Assembly: GCA_964545975.1 (NCBI GenBank)
Contig: CAZJHY010000001.1
Span: forward strand, 24,094-88,093
Source of the DNA: an uncultured Clostridia bacterium
Lineage (GTDB): Bacteria > Bacillota > DTU025 > MWDF01
Direction: 5' to 3'
Length of the DNA stretch: 64,000 bases
Of the stretch, positions 11,066 to 41,462 are shown one piece after another. The notes under the pieces are model-generated. The model had not been told where the DNA came from and searched no databases. It was given only the letters and a program-made list of their open reading frames with translations. The stretch's first letter is position 1, and the number at the start of each line of letters is the position of its first letter. Made by a program: the position numbers and the translations under genes.

Positions 11066-11713
11066 CTACTTGTTCTGCCCGTAAGTCCTGCCGAGGGTGG
11101 AGACCAATGCCTTCACCTGTTCGTCAGTTAGTGAGGATGCCCTGCCTATTTGCGAGGCGTGTATATAGCACGAGCACATCTTCTCCAGAAGCTCGCACCT
11201 TTCAAGGGCCTTCTCAGGCGTGTCAGCGACGCAGACTGACCCGTGATTGGACATTATTGCTGCATTCTTGCTTCCTAGCGCCTTCGCGACGTTCTTTGCT
11301 AGGTCGTCGCTTCCAGACATAGCATAATCCGCTACCTCTACAGCGCCTCCGAAGCTGAAAGCGCATATATCAGTTATGACCGGAAGAGGCATCCTTGCTA
11401 CGCCAAGGGCTATCGCCATGGGTGAATGAACATGAACGACGGCTTTAACCTCAGGCCTGGCAATGTAGATCTCCCTGTGCAGCATGCTTTCTACCGAGGG
11501 CTTAAGCTTTGATGAGGAATACAGTGTCGCCAGATCCAGCTCTACTATCTGCTCAGGGGAAAGCGCCTCATAAGGTATGCCGCTGGGGGTTATCAGCATC
11601 CCGGTTCCTGATTCATTCCTGCAGCTGACATTCCCTCCGGTGCCTATAGTAAGCCCCATTTCCATCATCTTGATGCCGGTCTGGATAATTCTTCTGTTAA
11701 GCTGCTCGTTCAT
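11066..11713 (-). CDS. class II aldolase/adducin family protein (L-fuculose-1-P aldolase / L-ribulose-5-P 4-epimerase-like)
   Basis: TGIKMMEMGLTIGTGGNVSCR N-terminal motif, HVHSPMAIA metal-His motif. Confidence 0.8.
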   Translation of the reverse strand: MNEQLNRRIIQTGIKMMEMGLTIGTGGNVSCRNESGTGMLITPSGIPYEALSPEQIVELDLATLYSSSKLKPSVESMLHREIYIARPEVKAVVHVHSPMAIALGVARMPLPVITDICAFSFGGAVEVADYAMSGSDDLAKNVAKALGSKNAAIMSNHGSVCVADTPEKALERCELLEKMCSCYIHASQIGRASSLTDEQVKALVSTLGRTYGQNK

Positions 11714-12151: not shown

Positions 12152-13162
12152 GTGAAGAGAACATTGTTAATCGCGGTTGTACTAGTCATGGCACTAACCA
12201 TCGTAACCGGCACTTTCGCAGCGACTACGCCTCTGTTGGTATCGGGCGGCGGTCTTAAGACGACCACTACCGTCAAGGCCAACTCGAAGTATCTCATCGC
12301 TTGCATCGTTAAGAACTCCACCAATCCTTACATGATCAAGCAGCTTGACGGCTTCAAAGCCGCCGGCGCATTCATGGGCTTCGACGCCGTCGCACTGGCT
12401 CCCGCCAAGGCCGACAACATCGAAGAGCAGGTCAAGATAATCGAAGACCTCATCCAGAAGGGCGTCAAGGGCCTCGTCATCCATCCTTCCGACTCCAACG
12501 GCATAGTCCCGATAGTCGAGAAGGCCATGTCGCTCGGCATCCCCGTGGTCGTAATAGGTACCCCGGCGAATACCGACAAGATATTCTTCCGCACCGGCAT
12601 GGACTATACCGACTCTGGCCGCAAGATCACCGAAGCTGCCATCCAGAAGATGGGCGGCAAGGGCAACGTCATAATACTTGAGGGCCCGCCCCAGGCGATC
12701 AACGCCAAGGAAAGGCTCAACGGCATGCTCGAAACTATAGCCAAGTACCCCGGCGTAAAGGTGCTTGACTCCCAGACCGCAAACTTCAACAGGCTCAACG
12801 CCCTCCAGGTCATGGAGAACCTCCTTCAGAAGCACAAGGACGTGCAGGGAGTCTTCGCGGCCAACGACGAGATGGCCCTCGGCGCGATCCAGGCTCTTGA
12901 AGCCGCCGGCAGGAAGAACGTGGTAGTCTCCGGCGTCGACGGAAGCAAGGACGCCTCGCAGGCGGTCCTCGAAGGCAGGCTCACAGTGACCTCGAATGCA
13001 GACCCCTATTCCAGCTCCTGGTGCGCCGCAGCATACATCGTGAAGTACTTGAACGACGGCACCATGCCGCCCTCCAAGTTCATCCCGTATCCCGCTGAAG
13101 TCGCCATCATCGACAAGAGCAACGTTCAGAACTACATCAACAACGACGCGTGGTGGAAGTAG
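12152..13162 (+). CDS. sugar ABC transporter substrate-binding protein (RbsB/ribose-type PBP family)
   Basis: signal peptide, type I PBP with FAANDEMALGA motif; GTG start after GGGGAGGGAA. Confidence 0.85.
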   Translation: MKRTLLIAVVLVMALTIVTGTFAATTPLLVSGGGLKTTTTVKANSKYLIACIVKNSTNPYMIKQLDGFKAAGAFMGFDAVALAPAKADNIEEQVKIIEDLIQKGVKGLVIHPSDSNGIVPIVEKAMSLGIPVVVIGTPANTDKIFFRTGMDYTDSGRKITEAAIQKMGGKGNVIILEGPPQAINAKERLNGMLETIAKYPGVKVLDSQTANFNRLNALQVMENLLQKHKDVQGVFAANDEMALGAIQALEAAGRKNVVVSGVDGSKDASQAVLEGRLTVTSNADPYSSSWCAAAYIVKYLNDGTMPPSKFIPYPAEVAIIDKSNVQNYINNDAWWK

Positions 13163-13180
13163 TCTCATAGAAGTCCTGCT

Positions 13181-13210
13181 ATGGAGCCCTGTCGCAAGAC
13201 GGGGCTCCAT
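13181..13210 (+). other. GC-rich intercistronic hairpin after SBP gene
   Basis: ATGGAGCCC (loop 12) GGGCTCCAT, 9 bp perfect stem. Confidence 0.5.
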
Positions 13211-13231
13211 GCACCCAAGGGGGCGTTATTT

Positions 13232-14752
13232 TTGGAGATAGTACCTATCCTCGAAGCGAGGAACATCAGCAAGGAGTTCCCGGGCGTAAAGGCGTTGGAT
13301 GAAGTATCCATACAGGTAAGGCCCGGCGAGGTCCATGTACTGATAGGAGAGAACGGGGCCGGAAAGAGCACGCTGTCCAAGATACTCATGGGAGTGTATA
13401 CCAGCGACAAGGGCGAGATCCTGTTCGATGGTAAGCCCGCCCACATTAGGAACCCTCATGACGCAAGGGCATTAGGCATATGCGGTGTCCATCAGGAGTT
13501 CATGCTTGTACCCTGGATGAACGTCGCACAGAACATCTTCATCAACAGAGAGCCCAGGATTTGGCCGGGGCTTCCCTTCATAGACCACAAGAAGATGCAC
13601 GAGGACAGCAGGAAGCTGCTTTCCTCCTTCAACGTGAACATCAACACCAAGCAGCCGGTGAAATACCTGGACACCGCGCTCCAGCAGATGGTGGAGATAG
13701 TAAAGGCGCTATCTACGAACCCCAAGGTCCTGATACTTGACGAACCGACTGCAGTCCTCACGGACAGGGAGGTCAACAGCCTCTTCGCCCATATAGAGGA
13801 GCTGAGAAGCCGAGGGGTTGCGATCATATACATATCGCACAGGCTTCCTGAGATCAGAAGGATAGGCGACAGGGTCACGGTCCTAAGAGACGGGAAGTAT
13901 GTAGCAACGGTTGACATCAAGGACACCCCCGACGAGGAGCTCATCAAGATGATGGTGGGCAGGAGCGTTTCGCAGCTTTATACCAGAAACCGCCAGGTTC
14001 CCGGGAAAGAGGCCCTGAGGCTTGAGAATTTCAGCGTGAAGGGCGGACCGCAGAATGTCGACCTGGTGCTGCACTACGGAGAGATCATTGGGCTTGCGGG
14101 CCTGATTGGTTCAGGGCGCACCGAGCTTGTCAGGGGCATCATGGGAATTGACCAGCAGACAGGCGGTTCCCTTTACATCGATGGCAACAAAGTCACGGTC
14201 GGAAGCCCTGACAAGGCGATAGGACTGGGGCTGGGGCTTCTGCCTGAGGACCGCAAGAGGTATGGCCTCGCCCTTAAGACGAACATCGCCTGGAATACCA
14301 TAATGGCGAGCCTCAAGCGGGAGTTCCCCAAGGGAGTAGTAAGGGAGCGCAAGGTGCGCGACATCGCCCAGGGCTATGTTAAGCAGCTGAAAATCGCCAC
14401 AGACTCGGTATCTAAGGTGGTGGGCTTCCTAAGCGGAGGCAACCAGCAGAAGGTTGTCGTCGCCAAGTGGATCAACACCAAGGCCAAGATCCTCATCTTC
14501 GACGAACCTACAAGGGGCATCGACGTGGGGGCCAAGGCAGAGGTGCACGCCCTCATGGACAAACTGGTGGCCGAAGGAAACGCGATCATAATGATTTCCT
14601 CCGACCTGCCGGAAGTCCTCGGGATGAGCGACCGCGTCTACACGATATTCCAGTGCCGTTCCATGGGGGACTGCTGCTTCCAGGAGGCGAACCAGCAGAG
14701 AATCGGCTCCCTTATGCTGGGAGTGGGGGTGAAGACAGATGCAAACCAGTAA
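13232..14752 (+). CDS. sugar ABC transporter ATP-binding protein with two NBDs (RbsA/MglA-like)
   Basis: two Walker A/signature sets (GENGAGKST; LSGGNQQK); TTG start at 13232 after AAGGGGG; the longer ORF from 13181 is rejected because it overlaps the hairpin. Confidence 0.8.
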   Translation: MEIVPILEARNISKEFPGVKALDEVSIQVRPGEVHVLIGENGAGKSTLSKILMGVYTSDKGEILFDGKPAHIRNPHDARALGICGVHQEFMLVPWMNVAQNIFINREPRIWPGLPFIDHKKMHEDSRKLLSSFNVNINTKQPVKYLDTALQQMVEIVKALSTNPKVLILDEPTAVLTDREVNSLFAHIEELRSRGVAIIYISHRLPEIRRIGDRVTVLRDGKYVATVDIKDTPDEELIKMMVGRSVSQLYTRNRQVPGKEALRLENFSVKGGPQNVDLVLHYGEIIGLAGLIGSGRTELVRGIMGIDQQTGGSLYIDGNKVTVGSPDKAIGLGLGLLPEDRKRYGLALKTNIAWNTIMASLKREFPKGVVRERKVRDIAQGYVKQLKIATDSVSKVVGFLSGGNQQKVVVAKWINTKAKILIFDEPTRGIDVGAKAEVHALMDKLVAEGNAIIMISSDLPEVLGMSDRVYTIFQCRSMGDCCFQEANQQRIGSLMLGVGVKTDANQ

Positions 14753-15704
14753 GCTCATGGGCTTTTTGAGGAAGGTCCCGCCGGCGACATACATCATACT
14801 GCTCATGATAGCCATATACGGCATCGCCGCGCCCGGCTTCTTCACCCTTGGAAACCTCGAGAACGTCGGAAACCAGGCGGCCCCCCTTCTCATCGTCGCC
14901 ATAGGTGTGACCATGGTCATCATGACGGAGGGTACAGACCTTTCGATCGGTTATGTGATGGGCATGGTCGGAGTCGTTGTATCGATTATGCTTAGGGCGA
15001 AAATCTGGATAGGCTGGGCGTTCCTTGCCGGCATCGCGGTAGGGGTGTTCTGCGGCTTCATAAACGGCGTCGCAGTCGCAAAGCTCAAGCTTCCTCCGTT
15101 CATTGCTACGCTTGGTACCGGAAACGTCATATTCGGAATAGGCCTCGTCATAACCGAAGGATACTCCATACAGGCACTTGATCCTGCGCTGCTTTTTCTG
15201 GCAAGCGGCAAGGTGTTCGGAATAAGCATGCCGATACTGATTGCCACGGTGGTCTTCGGGTTATGCTGGGTACTCATGAACTACACGCCGTTCGGGCGCA
15301 ACATAGTCTCTCTCGGAGGCAACTCCGAGGCGCTTAGAGGCGTTGGCCTTAACGTCGGGAAAGCCTCCATATCGGTATACATGATGTGTGGCTTCCTTGC
15401 GGCAATAGGAGGCCTCATAGTGGCGTCAAGGACAGGCTCAGGCTATTCGGCGGCTGCCATGGGATGGGAGTTCGACGCCATCGGAGCCAGTATAATCGGC
15501 GGTACATCCTTCGAGGAGGGCAATGGATCCATAAGCAGGACCGTAATTGGTGTCGCGCTCATATCGATACTCAGAAACGGCCTTAATGTCGTGGGCGTGC
15601 CGAACATGTACCAGTACGCGCTCATCGGCGCCATAGTGCTGACGGCCATAATCCTGGACGTTCGCTTCAGGCAGGCCGCGAAGGGAGGCGTCAAGAGAGT
15701 ATGA
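14739..15704 (+). CDS. sugar ABC transporter permease (RbsC family)
   Basis: multi-TM; overlaps ATPase stop. Confidence 0.8.
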   Translation: MQTSKLMGFLRKVPPATYIILLMIAIYGIAAPGFFTLGNLENVGNQAAPLLIVAIGVTMVIMTEGTDLSIGYVMGMVGVVVSIMLRAKIWIGWAFLAGIAVGVFCGFINGVAVAKLKLPPFIATLGTGNVIFGIGLVITEGYSIQALDPALLFLASGKVFGISMPILIATVVFGLCWVLMNYTPFGRNIVSLGGNSEALRGVGLNVGKASISVYMMCGFLAAIGGLIVASRTGSGYSAAAMGWEFDAIGASIIGGTSFEEGNGSISRTVIGVALISILRNGLNVVGVPNMYQYALIGAIVLTAIILDVRFRQAAKGGVKRV

Positions 15705-16696
15705 ACGAAGGTTCAAGGATGAAGGACACCCCCAAGGCGGTCGCAATCGTAAACGACAGGCTCAAGGCAAGGGAGGCCATAGCTCCCCTCTTCAGGCTCA
15801 CGTTCCTGATAGTCCTCATGATCGCACTTTCCATACTCAGCGAGGACTTCTTCACATGGAGCAACCTAATTAACGTTCTCAGGCAGTCGACTTTCCTGAT
15901 AGTAATCGGCCTCGGGCTCACAGGGGTGCTGCTTACCGGAGGCATCGACCTGTCCGTAGGCGGTGTGCTCGCATTCGTGGGCTGCGCGACTGGACAGATG
16001 ATGAGATCCGGCGTTCCGCTTTATCTTGCAGTGCCAATCGGTCTTCTAATCGGAGCGGGAGTCGGATGCTTCAACGGTTTCATGGTGGGGTACATCAAGC
16101 TTCCTCCGTTTGTGGCCACTTACGGTTCCAAGTGGATATCCGAGGGCATGGCGCTGCTTCTTATGCAGGGGCAGGTCATCTACGGCTTCCCGAGGGTGTA
16201 CCGCTGGATCGGCATCGGCTACATAGGACCCATACCAGTGCCCATCATAATTGCTGCCATCCTTGCGGTAATAATGAACTTCCTGTTCGTGAAGACCGTA
16301 TTCGGCAGGCAGGTATATGCACTGGGCGCCAACAAGGAAGCAGCATTCTACTCGGGCATCAAAGTCAAGAAGAACATCATGGTGGTATACACCCTTGCTG
16401 GCCTCATGGCGGGCATTGCCGGCCTTCTGATGCTTGCAAGGCTTGACGCCGCCGAGGTGAACATGGGAGAGGCCCTGCAGCTGCAGTCCCTCGCCGCGGT
16501 CATCATCGGGGGTGCATCCCTTCGCGGAGGCGAGGGCAGCATATTCGGCACGATAATTGGCGCCATAACCCTTACGCTGGTCGTAAACGGGCTTAACCTG
16601 CTTGGCGTGCGCTCTTTGTGGCACTCAGTGGTGCTCGGCGGCGTCATCCTGGCATCCGTGATAATGGACCTGCGCATGAAGAAGCTGGCGCAATAA
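15701..16696 (+). CDS. sugar ABC transporter permease (RbsC family, second copy)
   Basis: multi-TM paralog of preceding gene, ATGA overlap. Confidence 0.8.
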   Translation: MNEGSRMKDTPKAVAIVNDRLKAREAIAPLFRLTFLIVLMIALSILSEDFFTWSNLINVLRQSTFLIVIGLGLTGVLLTGGIDLSVGGVLAFVGCATGQMMRSGVPLYLAVPIGLLIGAGVGCFNGFMVGYIKLPPFVATYGSKWISEGMALLLMQGQVIYGFPRVYRWIGIGYIGPIPVPIIIAAILAVIMNFLFVKTVFGRQVYALGANKEAAFYSGIKVKKNIMVVYTLAGLMAGIAGLLMLARLDAAEVNMGEALQLQSLAAVIIGGASLRGGEGSIFGTIIGAITLTLVVNGLNLLGVRSLWHSVVLGGVILASVIMDLRMKKLAQ

Positions 16697-16727
16697 GGAT
16701 TAGCAGAAAGAAAAAGGAGGAACACCA

Positions 16728-17537
16728 ATGGCCAACCTTACGATCAGACCCATAAACACCGGTTACGCGGAAACCTACAAGAAGCAGTACCAGTACCATC
16801 ATTCTACCCACAAGTACCACAACGTCGACGACGGAAAGCTTCTTCTGCCCTGCATGGCATTCCTTATCGAGGGCGGAGACAAGCTCGTGCTGGTAGACAC
16901 CGGCATGTCCAACACCGAGATAGCCAACAAGTATCATCATCCGGGTTCGTACCAGCCTGACGGCTTTGCGATACATGAGCAGCTGGCGAAGCTGGGCATC
17001 AAGTGCGAGGACATCGACATTGTCATCTTCACGCACATGCACTGGGACCACATGCACAACATGGAGAAGTTCGTAAACGCCAGGTTCATCGCCCACAAGA
17101 AGGAATGGGAGTTCTGCCAGAACCCCATCCCGCTGTACTACAAATCATACGAGCATCCCAAGCTCGGCATAAAGGCTCCCTTCACTGGCCTTAAGATCGA
17201 GACCGTAGAGGGCGAGCAGGAGATAGTCCCCGGCATAAGGGTGTTCGAGAGCTTCGGGCATTCGCCGGGCCACATGTCCGTGGAAGTCGACTGCGAGGAC
17301 GGATCCTACATCCTCTGCGGCGATGCGGTATTCATCTACGACAACCTTAAGCCCGTGCCGGACATGTTCTATGAGATTACTCCCCCGGCCAGGTATGCCA
17401 ACATCGTCGAGTGCTGGAACAGCATAGTCGAGATGAAGCATAGGGCCAAGGAGCAGCGCTTCATACTGCCCTCCCATGAGCCTGAGATAGAGGAGCTCGC
17501 GAAGAAGTACGGAACTTTCCCGATACCCAAGAAGTAA
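16728..17537 (+). CDS. MBL-fold metallo-hydrolase (AiiA-like lactonase family)
   Basis: HxHxDH zinc motif in FTHMHWDHMHN; RBS AAAAGGAGG. Confidence 0.75.
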   Translation: MANLTIRPINTGYAETYKKQYQYHHSTHKYHNVDDGKLLLPCMAFLIEGGDKLVLVDTGMSNTEIANKYHHPGSYQPDGFAIHEQLAKLGIKCEDIDIVIFTHMHWDHMHNMEKFVNARFIAHKKEWEFCQNPIPLYYKSYEHPKLGIKAPFTGLKIETVEGEQEIVPGIRVFESFGHSPGHMSVEVDCEDGSYILCGDAVFIYDNLKPVPDMFYEITPPARYANIVECWNSIVEMKHRAKEQRFILPSHEPEIEELAKKYGTFPIPKK

Positions 17538-17619
17538 CATCACACCGATTGGGGGTGCGGCCGGGAGGCAGGTCCAAGGGGGCGCGGGCCTCCGAAGACA
17601 GCCAACCCGGCCTTGTCAT

Positions 17620-18843
17620 ATGAAGACTATCGCAGTGATAACCTCGCTGGACACGAAGGGGAAAGAGACCCTCTATATAAAGGATGCGATCGAGAGGTTC
17701 GGCTCGAAGGCTCTCATCATAGACGTAGGGGTCAAGGAGCCGCCATATTTCACGCCTGATATCGCAAGGCACGAGGTGGCCGCCGCCGCCGGCATCGACT
17801 GGGATACGGTGAAGGACAAGGAGAAAAGGGTGAGGATAAGCACCATGACCTCAGGCCTTGAGGTGCTTATACCCAAGCTATATGCCGAGGGGAAGCTTTC
17901 GGCCGTGTTCTCGATGGGAGGCCTTCAGAACACAACGATGGGAACATCGGCGATGAAGACCCTGCCGCTCGGGGTGCCTAAGCTCATGCTTTCCACGATG
18001 GCGTCCAGCAACAGGCCTTTCGGTCCGTTCGTGGGAACCAAGGACATGACCCTCATGCACTCGGTGGGCGACATCCTAGGGGTAAACCCCGTCACCAAGG
18101 CCGTGATGGATAACGCCGTCGGAGCCATCGTGGGGATGGCGGAGCACGCCGGAAACAGGGTGCAGAAAACTGACAGGATCCTTGTGGGTGCCACTATGCT
18201 CGGCGTAACGAACGACGGAGTGAGCCGCGCGGTATCCTACCTCGAGGAGGCAGGCTACGACGTGGTCACCTTCCATGCGAACGGTGCGGGAGGACCGGCC
18301 ATGGAGGAGCTCATAGGACAGGACACGATAGACGCCGCGATGGATCTTACGCTGCATGAGATAGACGCTGAATTCTTCGGGGGGCACTGTTCGGGGGCGA
18401 CCAACAGGCTCCTTATGGCCGCCGAGAAGGGGATACCCCAGGTTGTTTCGCTTGGTGCCTCCGACGTCATAGACTATGAGGTCGTGGACCTCGACAAGGT
18501 AAGGGAGTATGGAAGGCGCAAGTTCGTCTATCAGCACCCCACCATCCAGCACATAAAGCTCATAGAGGAAGAGGCGCACAAGGTCGGGACGGTAATCGGG
18601 GAGAGGCTCTCAAAGGCCAAGGGTCCCCTAACCCTCGTCATACCTAGGGGAGGCTTCCACCAGAGCAGCTACAAAGGCGGTCCCATATGGGATCCTGCCA
18701 TCGACGAGATAATCATAGGACACATACTAAGCAGGATTGCGCCTTCCACAAGGGTGGTAGAGACCGCAGCCCATATCAACGAGCCCGCCTTCAGCAGGGT
18801 GGCGGCCGATGAGATGATTAAGCTTCTGAAGGCCATGCGCTAA
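17620..18843 (+). CDS. UPF0261 (Tm-1-like N-terminal domain) family protein
   Basis: N-terminal MKTIAVITSLDTKGKE pattern and ~400 aa length typical of UPF0261; product by recollection of family only. Confidence 0.5.
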   Translation: MKTIAVITSLDTKGKETLYIKDAIERFGSKALIIDVGVKEPPYFTPDIARHEVAAAAGIDWDTVKDKEKRVRISTMTSGLEVLIPKLYAEGKLSAVFSMGGLQNTTMGTSAMKTLPLGVPKLMLSTMASSNRPFGPFVGTKDMTLMHSVGDILGVNPVTKAVMDNAVGAIVGMAEHAGNRVQKTDRILVGATMLGVTNDGVSRAVSYLEEAGYDVVTFHANGAGGPAMEELIGQDTIDAAMDLTLHEIDAEFFGGHCSGATNRLLMAAEKGIPQVVSLGASDVIDYEVVDLDKVREYGRRKFVYQHPTIQHIKLIEEEAHKVGTVIGERLSKAKGPLTLVIPRGGFHQSSYKGGPIWDPAIDEIIIGHILSRIAPSTRVVETAAHINEPAFSRVAADEMIKLLKAMR

Positions 18844-18875
18844 GCAGGGCCAGAAGCCTCACAAGGAGGATTCCG

Positions 18876-20132
18876 ATGTTCTACGGACTGCCTTTCGACA
18901 ACCCCGAGTCCATTTATGGCAGGGATTACGTTCTGGGCACCTATTTCGTGACCGGCGTCACAGGAGACGATGCGCTTAATAAGCTGGGCATGTTTGCAGT
19001 CGGCCAGTCCACCGGCACGTGGATGCCGGTGCCCGGCATAACCAGGCAGATGGTGGAGGATCATCAGGGAAGAGTCGTCGGATGCTATCCGGTGCCCGCC
19101 CAGGAGCCCGGCGCCTACGTTCTTAGGGTGGCGTTTCCCTACAGCAACATAGGCGGGTCCATCTCGATGCTGCTTACCACGCTTGCGGGAAACGACGCTT
19201 CGACTGCGCTGTGCGCGAAGCTCATAGACGTGGAGCTTGTCGGCAAGGCGAAGTCGGCCTTCCACGGTCCGCACTTCGGAATAGACGGGGTGAGGAAGCT
19301 CACGGGAGTCTACGACAGGCCCATAGTCATGAATATGATCAAGCCTTGCACGGGCTTTCCGGCTACGGCAGGGGCGGAGTTCTTCTACGCGTCCGGATCA
19401 GGCGGCGTAGACATAATAAAAGATGACGAGCTTATGGGCAACACCAGCTTCAATTCCGTCGCCGACAGGGTGAGGGAGTATGGTAAGGCTCAAGCGAGAA
19501 TCGGAGGAGAGAGGGGCAAGGCCCCTATATACCTTCCCAATGTGACCGACAGGCACGATAAAATGCGCGACAACATCAAGGCGGCGATAGACGGCGGAGC
19601 GAAGGGCGTCATGGTCAACTTCGTCTTCACCGGACTCGACAGCCTTGCCGCGCTTACATCGGAGTTCGGCGACAAGGTGATGTTCCTCGCTCATGCGGCA
19701 GGAGTTGGCGTCATGACCGGTTATCCGCAGGGCTTAAGCACCTCGCTTCTTCTAGGAAGGCTCGGAAGGCTGGCAGGCGCGGACGCGGTGGTCACCCTTT
19801 ATCCTCTCGGCATGGGAGGAGACGGCTTCCAGGAGCTTCAGATGACGGTGCAGAAGCACAGGCTGCCTCTGGGAGATGTCAAGCAAGCCTTGACCGTGGT
19901 CGGAGGAGGCGTCACGCCGCTTACCGTACCGTTTGCGGTGAAGAGCTTCGGCAAGGACATAATCATCGCCGTTGGCGGTGGCATCCAGGGCCACCCGGAC
20001 GGGGCGACGGCAGGCGCAAAGGCCATGATGGCTGCGGTGGATGCGACCATGAAGGGCGTAAGCCTGGAAGACGCGGTTAAGGACAGCCCGGAGCTCGGAA
20101 GGGCGATAACCAGATGGGGCAAGAAGGCTTAA
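18876..20132 (+). CDS. RuBisCO-like protein (form IV RuBisCO large-subunit homolog)
   Basis: GGVDIIKDDE aligns with RuBisCO GGLDFTKDDE (carbamylated Lys and Mg ligands retained); IKP (K175 equivalent) present; no small subunit or PRK nearby; RBS AAGGAGGA. Confidence 0.8.
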   Translation: MFYGLPFDNPESIYGRDYVLGTYFVTGVTGDDALNKLGMFAVGQSTGTWMPVPGITRQMVEDHQGRVVGCYPVPAQEPGAYVLRVAFPYSNIGGSISMLLTTLAGNDASTALCAKLIDVELVGKAKSAFHGPHFGIDGVRKLTGVYDRPIVMNMIKPCTGFPATAGAEFFYASGSGGVDIIKDDELMGNTSFNSVADRVREYGKAQARIGGERGKAPIYLPNVTDRHDKMRDNIKAAIDGGAKGVMVNFVFTGLDSLAALTSEFGDKVMFLAHAAGVGVMTGYPQGLSTSLLLGRLGRLAGADAVVTLYPLGMGGDGFQELQMTVQKHRLPLGDVKQALTVVGGGVTPLTVPFAVKSFGKDIIIAVGGGIQGHPDGATAGAKAMMAAVDATMKGVSLEDAVKDSPELGRAITRWGKKA

Positions 20133-20169
20133 GGGCCGCCCGAATGATGACCGTATGGAGGTAAAGCAG

Positions 20170-20793
20170 ATGGAAGATCTTATCATGAGCATAAAAAGGG
20201 ACGTGGAGCTCGCCTGCAGGAGGGCGTACACGAGGGGAATACAGACCGGAAGCGGCGGAAACGTCAGCGCAAGGATACCGGGCACGGACCATATGATAGT
20301 GAAGCCAAGCAAGGTGTCGCTCATCGAATGCGACCCCGAGACGCTTATCATAACCGACTTCGACGGAAACTTGGTGCAGGGCTCTCTTCCTCCTACGAGG
20401 GAGGCGGTGCTTCACGGCTGGCTGTATAAGAAGTTCGGCAAGATCGGAGCGGTGGTTCACACCCATTCGCCCTGGGCTATATCCTGGTCCTTCACCAGGA
20501 GGGACCTTCCCAATATTACCATGCATACTCAGCTTAAGCTGGGATGCCCCATCCCGGTCAGGTTCTTCTCCAGCCCCAAGGGGGTTCTGAAGGAGGAGAT
20601 GCCAGAAGTCTACGGCCTTTTCGAGAAGGAACCGAACCTCGCCGCCTTCATACTCGGTGCGCACGGTGTGGTCGCAGTCGGCGACAATATCATAGAGGCC
20701 GAGCACACGGCGGAGCTCATAGAGGAGACGGCACAGATAGCATACCTGCACGAGATGGGATTGAAGCTCGGGATGTTCCCCGAGGGCAGATAA
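20170..20793 (+). CDS. class II aldolase/adducin family protein
   Basis: GIQTGSGGNVSAR, HTHSPWAI motifs; start at ATG 20170 after GGAGGT. Confidence 0.8.
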   Translation: MEDLIMSIKRDVELACRRAYTRGIQTGSGGNVSARIPGTDHMIVKPSKVSLIECDPETLIITDFDGNLVQGSLPPTREAVLHGWLYKKFGKIGAVVHTHSPWAISWSFTRRDLPNITMHTQLKLGCPIPVRFFSSPKGVLKEEMPEVYGLFEKEPNLAAFILGAHGVVAVGDNIIEAEHTAELIEETAQIAYLHEMGLKLGMFPEGR

Positions 20794-20822
20794 GACGAAG
20801 ACAATCCGAACGGAGTGATCAT

Positions 20823-21284
20823 ATGTACAGGAAGATGGTAATAGGCTGCGACGAGGCGGCCTGTGAGCTGAAAAACGCCCTTATCGAGGTCCTTAAGAAG
20901 AAGGGAATTGAGTATGAGGACGTCGGAGTGCCGGATGCAAGCGACAAGACCTATTATCCCCTGGTGGCAGAGAAGGTGGCCGAGGCGATAATAGAAAGCG
21001 GCTATGAGAAGCACGGGATGCTCCTCTGCGGAACGGGCATCGGCATGGCCATATCCGCGAACAAGCACCCCGGGGTATTTGCCGCTGTATGCCACGACCA
21101 GTATTCTACCGAGAGGGCGAAGCTGAGCAACAACTGCAACGTCATCTGCATGGGGGCAAGGGTCATAGGGCCAGAGCTTGCCAAGAAGAACCTGGAGCAA
21201 TGGCTTGAGCTGACGTTCAAGGACGGCTCCTCGACCCCTAAGGTGGAGGCTGTGAAGGATATCGAGAAGAGGCATATGAAATGA
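20823..21284 (+). CDS. RpiB/LacA/LacB family sugar-phosphate isomerase (ribose-5-P isomerase B-like; possible tetrose-P isomerase)
   Basis: MVIGCDEAA...LLCGTGIGMAISANK with catalytic Cys-region; ~153 aa. Confidence 0.8.
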   Translation: MYRKMVIGCDEAACELKNALIEVLKKKGIEYEDVGVPDASDKTYYPLVAEKVAEAIIESGYEKHGMLLCGTGIGMAISANKHPGVFAAVCHDQYSTERAKLSNNCNVICMGARVIGPELAKKNLEQWLELTFKDGSSTPKVEAVKDIEKRHMK

Positions 21285-22075
21285 GGAGCCCGCTTCTTGT
21301 CGGCACGAACCTCAAGATGTACAAGGGCGTGAAGGAGACGCTGGAGTTCCTTTCGCGCCTTGCGGGAAACGTCAGCCACATAGGCAGCGAAGACATGACG
21401 CTCTTCGTCATACCCTCCTACCTTGCCCTTCATGCGGCATGCGGGTCTGATGCGCACAGCAGGATACTCCTTGGCGCGCAGAATCTGCACTGGGAGGACT
21501 CCGGGCAGTTCACCGGTGAGATATCCCCCATGATGCTCAAGGAGATAGGCATAGATATCGCTGAGATCGGCCACTCGGAACGAAGGCAGCTTTTCGGTGA
21601 GACGGACGTGACAGTGGGGCTTAAGGCCAAGGCAGCGCTCAGGCACGGCATGAGGGCCCTGGTATGCATAGGGGAGACCGCAGACGACAAGGCGTCGGGC
21701 ATTACCTATGAGAAGCTGAGGATGCAGGTGAAGGTGGCCTTAAAGGGGATTTCTGCGGATGAGCTCGAGGGGCTTTGGGTAGCATACGAGCCGGTATGGG
21801 CCATCGGGATCCACGGGGTCCCGGCTGAGCCCGGATACGCCGAGAAGAGCCACAGGATGATAAAAGACGTGCTGGAAGAGCTTTACCCTAATAAGGGCGC
21901 AGGCGTTCCCGTGCTGTACGGCGGAAGCGTCAACATGGAAAACGCCATGGAGCTCATCGTCCAGCCGAGCATAGACGGCTTGTTCATAGGAAGGACCGCT
22001 TGGGACGCGGACAGGTTCGCGTCGCTGATCAAGGATGTCCTCCCCTTGTGGAAGGCCAAGGCTGAGAGAGAATAG
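21281..22075 (+). CDS. triose-phosphate isomerase family protein (TpiA-like, divergent N-terminus)
   Basis: GHSERR, AYEPVWAIG (catalytic Glu), YGGSV; N-terminal GTNLKMYKG instead of canonical GNWKMNK. Confidence 0.8.
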   Translation: MRSPLLVGTNLKMYKGVKETLEFLSRLAGNVSHIGSEDMTLFVIPSYLALHAACGSDAHSRILLGAQNLHWEDSGQFTGEISPMMLKEIGIDIAEIGHSERRQLFGETDVTVGLKAKAALRHGMRALVCIGETADDKASGITYEKLRMQVKVALKGISADELEGLWVAYEPVWAIGIHGVPAEPGYAEKSHRMIKDVLEELYPNKGAGVPVLYGGSVNMENAMELIVQPSIDGLFIGRTAWDADRFASLIKDVLPLWKAKAERE

Positions 22076-22104
22076 GGCAAGGCTTACGAAGGCGGTGTGA
22101 TGCA

Positions 22105-22776
22105 ATGGCGGACATGGTCATGGAGGCGAAAAGGCAGTTAATAGAGATCGGAAGGCAGATAGCTGCCAAGGGACTTGTGATAGGACCCGGCGGAAATACC
22201 AGCTTAAGGGCAGGCGCCCTCATGGTGATATCCGCCAGCGGCTCTTCATTCGAGTGCTCCGACGAGAGCGACTACGTCGCGATAGACATAGAGACAGGAA
22301 AACAGGCCGACGGCGGCAAGAGGCCGTCTTCCGAAGTGCTGATGCACCTTGAGTGCTACAGGAGGCGCCCGGATGTAAACGCTGTAGTCCATACCCATCC
22401 GACGTGGTCGACATCTGTAGCAAGCTCGGGCACCAAGATGCCCCCGATGTTCCCGGATTACGTCGTGTTCGTGGGCAAGCCCGCGACCCTGGATTACGTG
22501 ATACCGACGACGAAGCTTCTGGCCGATGCCGTGGCCGAAGTCATAGGGGAGCATAATGTGGTGCTCATGAGCAATCACGGGGTGCTTGCCGTCGCAGGCG
22601 ACCTCAAGATGGCGCTATTAAGGGTGGAGCTGGCAGAGGAGAACGCAAGGATGCTCGTGATAGCAAACTCCCTCGGCAAGCCGCGATCCCTTACGGATGC
22701 CGAAGTCCAGGCGATATTTGACCTGGAGAGCGAGAAGTACAGGCAGAGGCTTCTGAAAAACGAGGGCGGGAAGTAG
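22105..22776 (+). CDS. class II aldolase/adducin family protein
   Basis: GLVIGPGGNTSLR, HTHPTWS motifs. Confidence 0.8.
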   Translation: MADMVMEAKRQLIEIGRQIAAKGLVIGPGGNTSLRAGALMVISASGSSFECSDESDYVAIDIETGKQADGGKRPSSEVLMHLECYRRRPDVNAVVHTHPTWSTSVASSGTKMPPMFPDYVVFVGKPATLDYVIPTTKLLADAVAEVIGEHNVVLMSNHGVLAVAGDLKMALLRVELAEENARMLVIANSLGKPRSLTDAEVQAIFDLESEKYRQRLLKNEGGK

Positions 22777-22798
22777 TCCTAAAAAGGAGGACGCACCA

Positions 22799-24271
22799 TT
22801 GTCCGACAGGCTTTTCATGGGGATAGACGTGGGCACGGGCGGAGCCAGGGTCATAGTCTGCGACGAGTACGGGTTGCCCCTGGCGGAAAGCTCGAGGCCG
22901 TTTGCCGCAGGTGCCGGCGCATCTGACATGCCCCAGGGCTGGCATCAGCAGTCGCCCGCAGCCTGGTGGGACGCGACTTCCGCATGTATAAGGCAGGTCA
23001 TGGGCTCACCCGGACTCGGCGGAAATCCTGGCAGGGTGTTCTCTGTTTCCGTCACATCCACATCAGGTACTGTGATCCCGCTTAGGGAGGATTGCGAACC
23101 GCTCTGGGATGCGGTCATGTACAACGACAGCAGGTCGTCCGCGCAGGCGGAAAGGGCGAACGAGGCGCTTAAGGAATTATGCGGGAAGCTCGCCTACAGG
23201 TTCGACACATCCTTCGGGCTTCCGAAGATGCTATGGTTCATGGACAGCAAGCCTGAGCTGTTCAGAAGGACCAGATTCTTCGTCCACGCTGGCGATTATA
23301 TTATCGGGAAGCTCTGCGGCTGCTTCGGTTTCACCGACTATTCCAACTCGCTGAAGTCTGGATACGACATCGATGAGCTGATATGGCCGAAGGAGATAGA
23401 GGAGAAACTGGGCGTCCCGGCGTCCAAACTGCCGGAAGTGCTCGCCCCGGGCACGGTAGTCGGGAAGGTCTGCGCCGCCTGCTCCGCAGAGACGGGCCTT
23501 CCGGAAAGCACCAACGTCGCGCTGGGCATGACGGACGGCTGCGCCTCGCAGATTGCATCGGGTGCCGCGTCCTTAGGCGACTGGAACACCACGATCGGCA
23601 CAACGCTTGTAATCAAGGGGGTCACCGAGAGGCTCCTCTTCGACCCGAAGGGAAGGATATACAGCCACAGGCATCCCGACGGGCACTGGATGCCAGGCGG
23701 GGCCAGCAACGTCGGCGGCGACTGCATAAGAAGCAACTTCCGCGACGATGAGCTGGATACGCTGAACGCGTCCGTGCGCCCTGAGAAGCCGACAGGCATG
23801 CTGGTGTACCCTCTGGAGAAGAAGGGCGAGAGGTTCCCGAACAGAGATCCTTTGGCAGAGGGGTTCATAATGGGAAGCCCATCAGGAAGGCCCGAGCTCT
23901 ATCAGGCCTACCTTGAGGGTGTTGCGCTGGTGGAGAAGATGTCATACGAGATGCTTCAGAGCTTGGGGGCGGCAATCGGTGACACGATCTTTGCGGCGGG
24001 AGGCGCCACGAAAAGCGAGCCATGGCTCAAGGTAAGGTCGAATATGCTCGACCGGCGCATTGCAGTCCCGGAGATTGCAGGAGGATTCATGGGAGCCGCC
24101 ATACTAGCAGCTTCCCTCTCCCATTGGGGCTCGCTCGGTGAGGCTGCCAAAAACATGGTAAAAATTTCCAAGACGATATGCCCGGACCCTGCCGCTGTCG
24201 ATGCCTATAAGGATAAGTACGGGCAGTTCATAAGAGAGATGGGAAGCAGGGGATATACCCTGGAGGGATGA
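22799..24271 (+). CDS. FGGY family carbohydrate kinase (xylulo-/ribulo-/erythritol-kinase-like)
   Basis: N-terminal GIDVGTGGARV, ~490 aa two-domain ASKHA kinase; TTG start after AAAGGAGG. Confidence 0.8.
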   Translation: MSDRLFMGIDVGTGGARVIVCDEYGLPLAESSRPFAAGAGASDMPQGWHQQSPAAWWDATSACIRQVMGSPGLGGNPGRVFSVSVTSTSGTVIPLREDCEPLWDAVMYNDSRSSAQAERANEALKELCGKLAYRFDTSFGLPKMLWFMDSKPELFRRTRFFVHAGDYIIGKLCGCFGFTDYSNSLKSGYDIDELIWPKEIEEKLGVPASKLPEVLAPGTVVGKVCAACSAETGLPESTNVALGMTDGCASQIASGAASLGDWNTTIGTTLVIKGVTERLLFDPKGRIYSHRHPDGHWMPGGASNVGGDCIRSNFRDDELDTLNASVRPEKPTGMLVYPLEKKGERFPNRDPLAEGFIMGSPSGRPELYQAYLEGVALVEKMSYEMLQSLGAAIGDTIFAAGGATKSEPWLKVRSNMLDRRIAVPEIAGGFMGAAILAASLSHWGSLGEAAKNMVKISKTICPDPAAVDAYKDKYGQFIREMGSRGYTLEG

Positions 24272-24275
24272 TGAT

Positions 24276-25673
24276 ATGAGCATTTACAAGGCCTGCGACA
24301 TAAGGGGAGTCTACCCTTCGTCGCTCGACGAGAAGACGTCATACGATATAGGAGCGGCTTTGGGGGAGATGCTCGGCCCTGTAAGCATGCTCGTCGCAGG
24401 CGACGTGAGGGTCAGCACGCCGCCTTTGAAGCAAAGCCTTATAAACGGCCTTGTGGACGCCGGATGCGAAGTAGTGGACATCGGCATGGCCCCGACCCCG
24501 GCCTTCTACTACGCGCTTCATAAGCTGGGCACCGAGTCGGGCGTGACGGTGACGGCATCCCATAATCCGGCCAAGTACAACGGCTTCAAGATAGCGCCGC
24601 ACGGGCAGCCCATGACTGAAGACGTGATGGACGACCTGAGGAAGATGGTCGAAGCTGGAGGATTCAAGCCATATGGGCAAGGGAGCGTAAGGAAGGCTGA
24701 GGTCATCGAGGATTACAAGAGATTCGTGCTTGATAAGATAGGAGAGCTAACGGGAACGAAGTGCAGCGCTCATGGTTCGAGTAATGCCCTCAAAGCCGTG
24801 GTGGACTGCGGCAACGGCTGCTACAGCACGATAGCCCCTGAAGTTCTAAGGCAAGCTGGCATCGCGGTTGAGGAGCTCTATTGCTGGGAGGATGGAACTT
24901 TCCCTAACAGGGAGCCAAACCCAGCTGTAGCTGAGAATCTCGAGGCTTTATGCGGCAAGGTCAGAGATACGGGGGCAGACCTTGGCATTGCCTTCGACGG
25001 GGACGGTGACAGGGTGGTCTTCGTGGACGAGCTGGGCAAAGTGGTCCCTAGCGACAATGCGATAGCACTTTTCGCCGGCTTCCTCCTTAAGAATCACCCC
25101 GGCTCGAAGGTGGTTTTCGACATCAAGTGCTCAAGCCTTGTGTCGGATTCGATCAAGGCGGCGGGCGGCATTCCAGTGATGGAGAAGTCAGGCCACGCTT
25201 ACATCAAGAACAACCTGCTGAGAAACGGCGCGGTTTTCGCAGGCGAGATCAGCGGGCACTTCTTCTTCCAGGTGCTCAAGGGGGATGACGGGCTGTTCGC
25301 GGCTCTTCTGATGGCCGAGATCATGATGTCGGAGGGCAGAAGCCTGGGGAAGATGGTGGAGTCGCAGCCGAAGTACTTCACTACAAGAGACTTCAGGATA
25401 CCGTTCTCGGGGAGCACGGCCGAGCTGTTCGGAAGGCTCAAAGCGCGCCTTGAGGCAAGCGGAGGCGCAAACCTGTCGTACCTGGACGGCATAAGGGCGG
25501 AGTTTTCTGAAGGCTGGGGGCTTATAAGGGCATCAGTCACTGAGCCACTGGTTACGCTGAGGTTCGAGGGGAAGTCGTTGGAGAGCCTTGATAGGATAAG
25601 GGATAGCTTCCTTGCTGCAGATGAGGACTTGCTTGATGCCGTAAGGGAGGTTTGGGCAAACCATCTTCCTTAG
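24276..25673 (+). CDS. phosphohexomutase (phosphomannomutase/phosphoglucomutase family)
   Basis: active-site TASHNPAKYNGFK phosphoserine loop. Confidence 0.85.
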   Translation: MSIYKACDIRGVYPSSLDEKTSYDIGAALGEMLGPVSMLVAGDVRVSTPPLKQSLINGLVDAGCEVVDIGMAPTPAFYYALHKLGTESGVTVTASHNPAKYNGFKIAPHGQPMTEDVMDDLRKMVEAGGFKPYGQGSVRKAEVIEDYKRFVLDKIGELTGTKCSAHGSSNALKAVVDCGNGCYSTIAPEVLRQAGIAVEELYCWEDGTFPNREPNPAVAENLEALCGKVRDTGADLGIAFDGDGDRVVFVDELGKVVPSDNAIALFAGFLLKNHPGSKVVFDIKCSSLVSDSIKAAGGIPVMEKSGHAYIKNNLLRNGAVFAGEISGHFFFQVLKGDDGLFAALLMAEIMMSEGRSLGKMVESQPKYFTTRDFRIPFSGSTAELFGRLKARLEASGGANLSYLDGIRAEFSEGWGLIRASVTEPLVTLRFEGKSLESLDRIRDSFLAADEDLLDAVREVWANHLP

Positions 25674-34758: not shown

Positions 34759-35101
34759 AAATATTCACAGCTAAGCGAAGGAATCCGCCCAAGAGCCATA
34801 CAAGCAAATAAGAGTCACAATACTGCCTGAGGCCTTTCCTTAGCTCGAACAAGGACGGAACGGGCATACTACGCTCCGTATATGGCGATTTCACTGCTAC
34901 TGCAACTATCATTGCTAAGTAGACCTGGAAACAGCGGCAACCGGAGAGGCGACCAATCAGTAAGCCATGGCTTACCGGAACCGCCGGAGCCAACTGCCCC
35001 AATTTGAAAATGGTATAATCCTCAGTAATGATGCGACCTGGCGGGATGCCGGGTCGTTCGGGCGCCGAGGGCAGAAAAGCTTCGCGCCCGGGAGGGATAC
35101 C

Positions 35102-35758
35102 ATGGCAGCGGACCCAAGGCAGGAGATAGTTTCGACAGGGCAGTACCTTCTTTCCCATCAGCTCGCATGGGGAAGCACCGGCAACATCAGCGCGCGCTTC
35201 GACGACAGCTCATTTTTCATAAGCGCATCAGGTGCGAGCCTCGGGACCCTTACGACCGAGAGCCTCTCTTTGTGCAAGGTCAACGGCGAGATGGTCACCC
35301 ACAACGTAACCCCGTCGAAAGAGCATAGGGTGCACGCCGCAGTCTATATAAACGATCCGAAGGCGCGGGCCGTGATACACACTTCGCCTCCTTATGTGTC
35401 GCTGATAGCGGCAGCCAGGAATTTCGGGGATTTCACCGTGGAGCATTTCATCGAAGCGGCTGTCATGCTGCAGAAGGTAGCATGGATAACGTTCATGCTG
35501 CCCGGAAGCGCTGAGATAATTGAGGCTGTTGGTAAAGCAGCAAAGGAATCCGATGTGCTCATGATGCAGAACCACGGCATCATGGTGACAGGCGAGAGCA
35601 TGAGGAAGGCGCTCAACAAGGTGGACACTATGGAGTTCCTTTGCCGCATGGTTATAACCGCCAGGTCCGCCGGGATAGACCTCAGGGCGCTTTCTAGGGA
35701 AGAGCTGGAGATGCTTCTAAGCGATTCGCGAGCAAGGAACCTAAACTACGGCTCCTGA
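35102..35758 (+). CDS. class II aldolase/adducin family protein
   Basis: AWGSTGNISAR, HTSPPYV motifs; start at ATG 35102. Confidence 0.7.
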   Translation: MAADPRQEIVSTGQYLLSHQLAWGSTGNISARFDDSSFFISASGASLGTLTTESLSLCKVNGEMVTHNVTPSKEHRVHAAVYINDPKARAVIHTSPPYVSLIAAARNFGDFTVEHFIEAAVMLQKVAWITFMLPGSAEIIEAVGKAAKESDVLMMQNHGIMVTGESMRKALNKVDTMEFLCRMVITARSAGIDLRALSREELEMLLSDSRARNLNYGS

Positions 35759-41451: not shown

Positions 41452-41462
41452 GAAGGGTGCAG

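Follow-up and report, generated by a model that had tools for sequence, protein, structure and literature searches.

The 64,000-nucleotide stretch of DNA analysed in this study (the window) covers positions 24,094 to 88,093 of contig CAZJHY010000001.1 from an uncultured Clostridia bacterium (GenBank assembly GCA_964545975.1). Its only gene for a RuBisCO-like protein (RLP) lies at 18876..20132 on the forward strand and is the seventh in a closely spaced string of same-strand genes (12152-25673, +). Few RLP reactions are known, namely those of an enolase, a 1,3-isomerase, a decarboxylase, a transcarboxylase/hydrolase, and an oxygenase, and each shows the reuse of RuBisCO partial reactions. A preliminary description of the locus singled out the motif GGVDIIKDDE of this protein as the RuBisCO carbamate-lysine/Mg2+ site. 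That an RLP should retain the motif is no surprise, and its only importance here is as the way in to the clade; the clade and its gene context, a consistent linkage to UPF0261 kinases and tetrulose-phosphate isomerases, are what is new. The protein itself is best explained as a catalytically competent, non-carboxylating RLP. The gene and the codons of its principal active-site residues are listed below, with RuBisCO residues in spinach numbering.

18876..20132 (+), RLP of 418 aa with an N-terminal domain and a TIM barrel (Pfam PF00016 and PF02788, AlphaFold2, Foldseek)
19191..19196 (+), N106-D107; N106 corresponds to RuBisCO N123, and D107 is family-specific and invariant (alignment)
19341..19349 (+), K156-P157-C158; K156 corresponds to RuBisCO K175, and C158 replaces K177 (Cys in 117 of 117 homologues and 89 of 93 loci)
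19401..19430 (+), motif GGVDIIKDDE, in which carbamylation is predicted for K182 (RuBisCO K201) and Mg2+ binding for D184 and E185 (D203 and E204; alignment)
19692..19694 (+), H273, corresponding to RuBisCO H294 (alignment)
19812..19814 (+), M313 at the position of RuBisCO loop-6 K334; no Lys, variable in the family (alignment)

The codons at 19401-19430 (GGC GGC GTA GAC ATA ATA AAA GAT GAC GAG) are in frame with the RLP open reading frame (ORF), in agreement with the preliminary description. K182 is encoded at 19419-19421, E185 at 19428-19430, and K156, the lysine of I155-K156-P157 ('IKP'), at 19341-19343. The protein matched Pfam RuBisCO_large (PF00016) over residues 135-414 (E 2.5e-39, 135.8 bits) and, weakly, RuBisCO_large_N (PF02788; 21.2 bits, cut-off 20.7). 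A two-domain fold, composed of an N-terminal alpha/beta domain and a (beta/alpha)8 barrel, was supported by AlphaFold2 and Foldseek. For the AlphaFold2 model, which used an alignment of 38 family sequences, the predicted local distance difference test (pLDDT) score was 91.6 and the predicted template-modelling (pTM) score was 0.91. In full-chain Foldseek comparisons, the template-modelling (TM) scores were 0.86-0.90 against form III RuBisCO and RLP structures (2cwx, 1tel, 2oek, 2zvi, and 4nas). Barrel strands were modelled at residues 150-154, 180-182, 269-273, 339-343, and 362-366, in the arrangement seen in RuBisCO. K156, K182, H273, G343-345, and G367-368 were located at or just past their C-terminal ends; an AlphaFold model had been suggested as a check in the preliminary description, and the one built here puts K156, K182, and H273 at the strand ends as in RuBisCO.

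Residues were compared in an L-INS-i alignment of the query RLP, spinach RbcL, 2oek, 4nas, and 117 homologues (43-97% identity). The spinach reference was identical to PDB 1ir1/8ruc at 475 of 475 residues. Eight of the compared positions were kept, given here as spinach and then RLP residue: T65 (T48), W66 (W49), N123 (N106), K175 (K156), K201 (K182), D203 (D184), E204 (E185), and H294 (H273). The glycine phosphate loops were kept as well, with G380/G381 at G344/G345 and G403/G404 at G367/G368; T48, W49, and these glycines make up the first-phosphate site. Three carboxylation residues were replaced (E60 by G43, K177 by C158, and K334 by M313), as were three basic residues of the second-phosphate site (R295 by A274, H298 by V277, and H327 by V306). 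T173 (M154) and S379 (G343) differed too. Most of the family has Tyr, Ala or Val, and Met at positions 295, 298, and 327, respectively.

The motif was also compared with that of the 2,3-diketo-5-methylthiopentyl-1-phosphate enolase MtnW of G. kaustophilus (2oek), whose K173, D175, and E176 form a solved carbamate/Mg site. In the HMMER alignment, GGVDIIKDDE of the RLP stood opposite GGVDLVKDDE of MtnW, and 'MNMIKPC' stood opposite 'MSIFKGM', which holds K147. GGVDIIKDDE occupies the position of the RuBisCO activation site: K182, D184, and E185 align with K201, D203, and E204 by sequence and by predicted fold. Both the alignment and the model were examined for a KDDE out of register with the activation site, and KDDE does align with it. 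The equation of 'IKP' with the K175 region was likewise borne out. Among the six residues whose presence the preliminary description had raised, K175, K201, D203, E204, and H294 have equivalents in the RLP, but K334 is absent, with M313 in its place. We infer from homology that K182 is carbamylated, that is, 'CO2-activated'.

This active site was the same in the 38- and 117-sequence alignments. K156, C158, K182, D184, E185, and H273 were invariant in all 117 homologues, and N106 was Asn in 116 of the 117. Counted over 93 related loci, the five core residues K156, K182, D184, E185, and H273 were present in 92. The signature G-Q-T-W-N-D-M-K-C-K-D-E-H (GQTWNDMKCKDEH), read at spinach positions 60, 61, 65, 66, 123, 124, 173, 175, 177, 201, 203, 204, and 294, was exact in 80. 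The residue pattern is a family trait; because the site is strictly conserved in more than 100 homologues, it is presumably a working metal and enolisation site and not a degenerate scaffold, as had been proposed. From RuBisCO enzymology, such a pattern predicts the binding of a monophosphate and enolisation alpha to an Mg2+-held carbonyl, with no carboxylation and no second-phosphate pocket. The preliminary description had limited the chemistry to enolase, isomerase, or transcarboxylase reactions. This list is too narrow, since characterised RLPs include a decarboxylase and an oxygenase (PMC10176493), and it omits epimerisation, which the gene context favours.

Retention of KDDE and of the K175 and H294 equivalents is the norm among characterised RLPs, hence unsurprising. 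The clade is set apart by a distinct signature, in which N123 is kept and followed by an inserted Asp, position 177 is Cys, and position 173 is Met. With N123 among the retained residues, the enolisation apparatus of RuBisCO is more complete in this clade than in MtnW. The Cys in place of K177 is also found in A. acidocaldarius 'MtnW' (4nas) but not in G. kaustophilus MtnW. Candidate roles for C158 are a second acid/base or the tuning of the K175 pKa. The clade is widespread in uncultured Bacillota and Chloroflexota. About 970 database proteins matched at E <= 1e-10, possibly with other RuBisCO/RLP relatives among them; 120 clusters were listed at 43-97% identity, and 91 related loci were found. 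A contig from a metagenome-assembled genome was 96% identical across the RLP. Literature searches on the RLP clade and on its links with UPF0261, erythritol, lactonase, and epimerase found no paper on the clade in the library searched. In the databases, many homologues (P0009, P0011, P0015, and others) are labelled '2,3-diketo-5-methylthiopentyl-1-phosphate enolase' by JGI, and one NCBI record reads 'transcriptional regulator'. Both labels are probably mistaken, because the equivalent of the catalytic Lys98 of MtnW is missing and the genes stand in a sugar context.

A sister subgroup (L049, L052, L056, L063, and L066; RLP genes, e.g., L052:8709-10034 and L066:1044-2315) had an identity of about 40% with the query RLP and also with MtnW. 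It keeps Glu at E60, a Lys aligned with loop-6 K334, N123, K175, KDDE, and H294, and has Cys at 177. Its neighbours are TRAP transporters, PEP_hydrolase-like proteins, UPF0261, and metallo-beta-lactamase-fold (MBL) proteins. The E60/K334 pair hints that this subgroup may carry out CO2-related chemistry, either carboxylation or transcarboxylation.

The other genes of the string that holds the RLP gene are as follows; TIM stands for triosephosphate isomerase, LerI for L-erythrulose-1-phosphate isomerase, and DerI for D-erythrulose-4-phosphate isomerase.

12152..16696 (+), ribose-type ABC transporter, with binding protein (12152-13162), ATPase (13181-14752), and permeases (14739-15704 and 15701-16696); best solved matches are ribose-binding proteins
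16728..17537 (+), MBL hydrolase, AiiA/4-pyridoxolactonase-like, putative lactonase with an HxHxDH motif
17620..18843 (+), UPF0261 (Tm-1-like) protein, putative ATP-dependent kinase (Pfam PF06792 and PF23189)
20155..20793 (+), class II aldolase-family protein, closest to FucA/AraD/OtnC and below every family cut-off
20823..21284 (+), RpiB-type isomerase (154 bits to the DerI model, cut-off 240)
21281..22075 (+), TIM paralogue, LerI/EryH-like, with a non-canonical loop 6; best solved match is L-erythrulose-1-phosphate isomerase
22105..25673 (+), second class II aldolase (22105-22776), FGGY kinase (22799-24271), and PGM/PMM-family mutase (24276-25673), named from the syntenic loci L001 and L004

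The boundaries of the operon rest on gene spacing and strand, because a promoter/terminator consensus scan gave no signal above shuffled controls. The block at 22105..25673 is not conserved across the family. The UPF0261 gene, like the RLP gene, is single in the window. Four class II aldolase/adducin paralogues lie within 25 kb, at 11066-11713 (-), 20155-20793 (+), 22105-22776 (+), and 34967-35758 (+). The three that were inspected have Glu at what we take to be the FucA Glu73 position (PTRE, PSSE, and PSVE), which would mean that they are aldolase-like and not AraD-epimerase-like. Further along the window, at 40483-43924 (+), a 2-hydroxyacid dehydrogenase, a LarA-like protein (lactate-racemase family), and an HMGL-like protein are encoded in a row behind a GntR/FCD regulator. 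A galactarate/altronate dehydratase follows at 50024-51196 (+), and the region is rich in sugar-acid catabolism. Long antisense ORFs, such as the one of 338 aa at 12194-13210 (-) opposite the binding-protein gene, had no support from homology and should be regarded as artefacts.

Family context was drawn from 9 loci with pre-computed Pfam labels and 80 metagenome loci, in which genes were called homology-first and unassigned ORFs were clustered. For the neighbour counts, 45 non-redundant loci were used that had 8 kb or more of flanking sequence. The most constant partner of the RLP was the TIM paralogue (26 loci), followed by UPF0261 (25), a class II aldolase (23), RpiB (21), MBL (20), an upstream sugar ABC transporter (20), a GntR/FCD regulator (12), an FGGY kinase (8), and a zinc-dependent alcohol dehydrogenase (7). 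MBL and UPF0261 formed a conserved adjacent pair in at least 20 related loci. Elsewhere, UPF0261 pairs with a PEP_hydrolase-like TIM barrel, a partnership that is found fused in plant Tm-1.

Other arrangements were also met. In polyol-type loci (L010, L033, L039, L058, L050, L057, and L093), an FGGY kinase and a GlpD-like or Fe-ADH_2 (glycerol-1-phosphate-dehydrogenase-like) protein are encoded with the RLP and the TIM paralogue; RpiB and Dak kinase are present in some, and UPF0261, MBL, aldolase, and carboxylate-handling genes are absent. In loci of the phosphotransferase system (PTS) type (L032, L054, and L091), EIIC-GAT and EIIA_2 are encoded alongside RpiB/TIM, a class II aldolase, and the RLP. 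One group of variant loci (L011, 3528-11275; L030; L040) reads MBL, UPF0261, UROD, DeoC, UPF0261, UROD, RLP, without TIM or RpiB; here the RLP, whose signature is unchanged, may serve a different pathway or substrate. A second group (L047, L051, L068, and L086) contains RLP, Amidohydro_2, PEP_hydrolase, UPF0261, RpiB, and TIM, and in L081 and L087 transketolase-like subunits are encoded near the RLP.

The partner proteins point to erythrulose phosphates. The TIM paralogue of the window scored 202 bits to L-erythrulose-1-phosphate isomerase (11ef) and at most 179 to canonical TIMs. Loop 6 is one residue longer in the paralogue and in 11ef (YEPVWAIGIHGVPA and YEPVWDIGENGIPA, respectively; canonical, YEPVWAIGTGK). 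The canonical IGTGK was absent in all 36 RLP-linked TIM homologues, 22 of which matched LerI (11ef) best. Their loop-6 variant is longer, typically IG[VE][NQH]G[IV]PA as in 11ef, and polyol-type loci have a third form, such as IGAAEPAPP or IGQPEPAPP. The RpiB-type protein passed the generic RpiB subfamily model and fell below the DerI cut-off. In the tetritol route, EryC is the D-erythrulose-1-phosphate 3-epimerase, LerI converts L-erythrulose-1-phosphate (L-Eu1P) to D-erythrulose-4-phosphate (D-Eu4P), and DerI converts D-Eu4P to erythrose-4-phosphate (E4P) (PMC10733421). Two class II aldolases, FucA and RhaD, act in either direction between D-Eu1P and dihydroxyacetone phosphate (DHAP) plus formaldehyde, and a module of FucA, EryC, LerI, and DerI takes DHAP and formaldehyde to E4P in E. 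coli, with no growth when EryC is left out (PMC10733421). In the window, the RLP, FucA-like aldolase, RpiB-like, and LerI-like proteins are encoded by four consecutive genes, a set that matches this module with the RLP standing where EryC would.

A second locus repeats the pattern. The gene order of L010 is SorC regulator, ABC transporter, RLP, RpiB, Dak, TIM, FGGY, and GlpD-like, which corresponds to the Brucella EryA/B/H/I/D set with the RLP in the place of EryC. We take the Brucella families to be FGGY for EryA, GlpD-like for EryB, TIM for EryH, RpiB for EryI, and SorC for EryD; EryC is presumably a xylose-isomerase-like TIM barrel of the AP_endonuc_2 family. AP_endonuc_2 is rare near RLPs of this family: among 111 same-strand neighbour ORFs that had no other assignment, 4 belonged to it, and L013 alone accounts for several.

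The UPF0261 protein of the window is likely a competent kinase. It matched the structure of MarK (9mpy) at 1.3e-43. MarK has been proven to be a kinase that uses ATP and releases ADP, the first activity known for the UPF0261 family; the E16K substitution of MarK raises activity about 1600-fold, and Lys20 of Tm-1 contacts the ATP alpha-phosphate (PMC12624787). The native Lys13 of the window protein aligns with MarK residue 16 and Tm-1 K20, and competence is likely because it sits at this activating and ATP-contacting position. That the kinase makes the RLP substrate is supported by the polyol and PTS loci, which have other routes to a phosphorylated substrate instead.

Taken with the active site, this context suggests that the RLP is probably an enolising, non-carboxylating enzyme of sugar catabolism whose substrate is the monophosphate of a ketose or keto acid. 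For the reaction itself, we tentatively favour erythrulose-1-phosphate 3-epimerisation (D-Eu1P to L-Eu1P and back), with the RLP as a non-homologous stand-in for EryC. The neighbourhood expected of EryC, with isomerases of the LerI/EryH and DerI/EryI types, is present in the family (TIM in 26 and RpiB in 21 of the 45 loci). D-Eu1P (P-O-CH2-C(=O)-CH(OH)-CH2OH) is ribulose-1,5-bisphosphate (RuBP) cut after C4, with the C3 hydroxyl on the same Fischer side. The RLP would bind a monophosphorylated 2-keto-3-hydroxy sugar, a ketose-1-phosphate, as RuBisCO binds the C1-C3 end of RuBP, with the phosphate in the first-phosphate site and O2 and O3 on Mg2+. The K182 carbamate would remove the C3 proton, as in the first partial reaction of RuBisCO, and the cis-2,3-enediolate would be held on Mg2+. 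Without K334, E60, or a closing loop 6, no CO2 would be added, and reprotonation from the opposite face would give L-Eu1P; the candidate acids for this step are K156, H273, D107, and C158. A short, unphosphorylated substrate tail would fit because a bulky Tyr (295) and Met (327) occupy the second-phosphate site in most members. RuBisCO itself misprotonates RuBP to xylulose-1,5-bisphosphate as a side reaction, and epimerisation by the RLP would be an analogue and a physiological use of that event. In the pathway, the substrate would be phosphorylated by the UPF0261 kinase or, elsewhere, supplied by an FGGY/Dak kinase with a polyol-phosphate dehydrogenase, or by a PTS. The L-Eu1P made by the RLP would pass through the LerI-like TIM paralogue and the RpiB-type isomerase to D-Eu4P and then E4P, and the FucA-like class II aldolase would connect Eu1P, or a related ketose-1-phosphate, with DHAP.

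The main rival, which we consider unlikely, is a beta-keto-acid-phosphate decarboxylase of the OiaC/OiaX type. Under this scheme, the MBL hydrolase would open an imported lactone, the UPF0261 protein would phosphorylate the (keto-)acid sugar, and the RLP would decarboxylate it on the Mg2+/carbamate site; protonation of the same Eu1P enediolate would then provide the LerI-like and DerI-like isomerases with L-Eu1P. The OiaC product is reportedly also L-Eu1P, which is said to be passed to LerI and DerI. The scheme agrees with the MBL lactonase-like gene and the ribose/apiose-type binding protein upstream of the RLP, with the GntR/FCD regulators of 12-17 related loci, with the putative decarboxylase families UROD and Amidohydro_2 in variant loci, and with the precedent of a characterised RLP that decarboxylates 3-oxo-isoapionate-4-phosphate (PMC6302742; PMC10176493). 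However, the protein is not OiaX itself, whose model gave 128 bits against a cut-off of 700. A DUF1537 kinase, an apionate oxidoisomerase, and a dehydrogenase through which a beta-keto acid could arise are all missing from the recurrent neighbours, and the polyol-type loci share the active-site signature without acid-forming genes. Decarboxylation could also be the task of the neighbouring class II aldolase (20155-20793), which scored 85 bits to the OtnC model. Less probable again is a carbonyl shift of the R. rubrum type, in which 1,2- or 1,3-proton transfer would isomerise a ketose-1-phosphate, such as a pentulose-1-phosphate, and the product would feed the class II aldolase or the TIM/RpiB-type isomerases. 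The enolisation machinery would serve this reaction equally, an RLP isomerase is known (PMC10176493), and the varied kinases and aldolases near RLPs permit C5 or C6 ketose-1-phosphates. Yet the activity would be redundant with the LerI-like isomerase encoded next door, and no cupin or methylthio-handling partners were nearby. The relevant structure 3qfw, which we take to be an R. rubrum/DeepYkr-type RLP, was only a weak match (117 bits).

Three further readings together carry a very small probability at most. MtnW-type enolisation of 2,3-diketo-5-methylthiopentyl-1-phosphate in methionine salvage is highly improbable and in effect refuted, even though these enzymes are the best-scoring named relatives (PRK09549, 266 bits; 4nas, 2e-60; 2oek, 2e-55) and the adjacent class II aldolase-family gene belongs to the family of MtnB. 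The scores lie under the equivalog cut-offs (265.8 against 409 for NF007095 and 220 against 513.6 for TIGR03332). The general base of G. kaustophilus MtnW, Lys98, is Asn in all but one of the 117 members (N106 in the RLP). No MtnK, MtnA, MtnX, or MtnD families were found in the nine annotated loci or in the window, and the context is that of a sugar ABC transporter and sugar-phosphate isomerases. The least probable is that the protein is a CO2-fixing form III-like RuBisCO or an inactive or regulatory scaffold. Form III RuBisCO and RLPs are equally near to it in fold (2cwx, TM 0.88), and N123, K175, K201, D203, E204, and H294 are kept; but K334, E60, K177, R295, H298, and H327 are all substituted, and the scores are far under the NCBIfam cut-offs (207 against 497 for form III, 100 against 489 for form II, and 195 against 438 for the large subunit). 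The window showed no gene for a phosphoribulokinase and none of the AMP pathway. Against a dead scaffold there is also the strict conservation, in more than 100 sequences, of both the metal site and the family-specific residues.

Several observations weigh against Eu1P 3-epimerisation. The clade is without a biochemically characterised member. In window-type operons, the conserved MBL lactonase-like gene has no part in the erythrulose scheme, and together with the GntR/FCD regulators of many relatives it hints at a lactone or sugar-acid substrate. No scheme considered here explains the function of the MBL-UPF0261 pair. MarK, the only characterised UPF0261 relative, phosphorylates phenols (PMC12624787). 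NCBIfam and PDB searches did not separate the specificities of the RpiB-type and class II aldolase proteins. L013 carries several AP_endonuc_2 genes, the presumed EryC family, along with its RLP, and some clade members stand in the other contexts described above (L011/L030/L040, L047/L051/L068/L086, and L081/L087).

With a reaction assigned to the clade, the functional tree of RuBisCO would gain a new branch, the MBL-UPF0261 pair would have a function, and a propagated annotation error would be corrected; a new Eu1P epimerase could also become available for engineered formaldehyde assimilation through erythrulose monophosphate (EuMP) pathways. A wider proposal, more doubtful than the epimerase assignment on its own, is that the clade is the first RuBisCO-superfamily enzyme with misprotonation as its physiological job. 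It would have taken over the Eu1P 3-epimerase step from EryC where anaerobic Bacillota and Chloroflexota break down tetroses and tetritols, with a UPF0261 kinase acting before it in the pathway. If so, UPF0261 would gain its first sugar-kinase role, the RLP, FucA-like, DerI-like, and LerI-like genes would be the natural counterpart of the synthetic erythrulose-monophosphate module, and RLPs would gain a reaction class with a clean mechanistic tie to a RuBisCO side reaction.

Among known systems, MtnW/YkrW enzymes (G. kaustophilus 2oek/2oem, B. subtilis 2zvi, and A. acidocaldarius 4nas) are the best-scoring characterised relatives, with 31-33% identity and TM scores of 0.86-0.89. They share the size, the two-domain fold, the KDDE triad, and the K175 and H294 equivalents, and also lack a loop-6 Lys and a second-phosphate site. 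The window RLP differs from them in having, in place of Lys98, Asn106 as in true RuBisCO, followed by the inserted, invariant Asp107, and in its lack of a methionine-salvage context. Form III RuBisCO (P. horikoshii 2cwx and T. kodakarensis 3a12) is an equal structural match (TM 0.88-0.90) and has N123, T65, W66, K175, K201, D203, E204, H294, and the glycine phosphate loops in common with the RLP; unlike it, the RLP is without E60, K177, R295, H298, H327, and K334 and without a carboxylase context. OiaC/OiaX is an RLP of a sugar catabolic pathway that acts on a kinase-made monophosphate, as is proposed here, and it is reportedly associated with tetrulose-phosphate isomerases too. Its partner kinase is of the DUF1537 family and not UPF0261, and the score to the OiaX model is well under the cut-off. 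The R. rubrum RLP, a 5-methylthio-D-ribulose-1-phosphate 1,3-isomerase, likewise enolises a ketose-1-phosphate with no CO2 chemistry, and differs from the window RLP in substrate tail and context (PMC10176493). EryC, finally, is not homologous to the RLP and has another fold and catalytic apparatus; the equivalence is drawn from gene context, which suggests the same reaction and the same position in the pathway, between the formation of Eu1P and the LerI/EryH and DerI/EryI isomerases.

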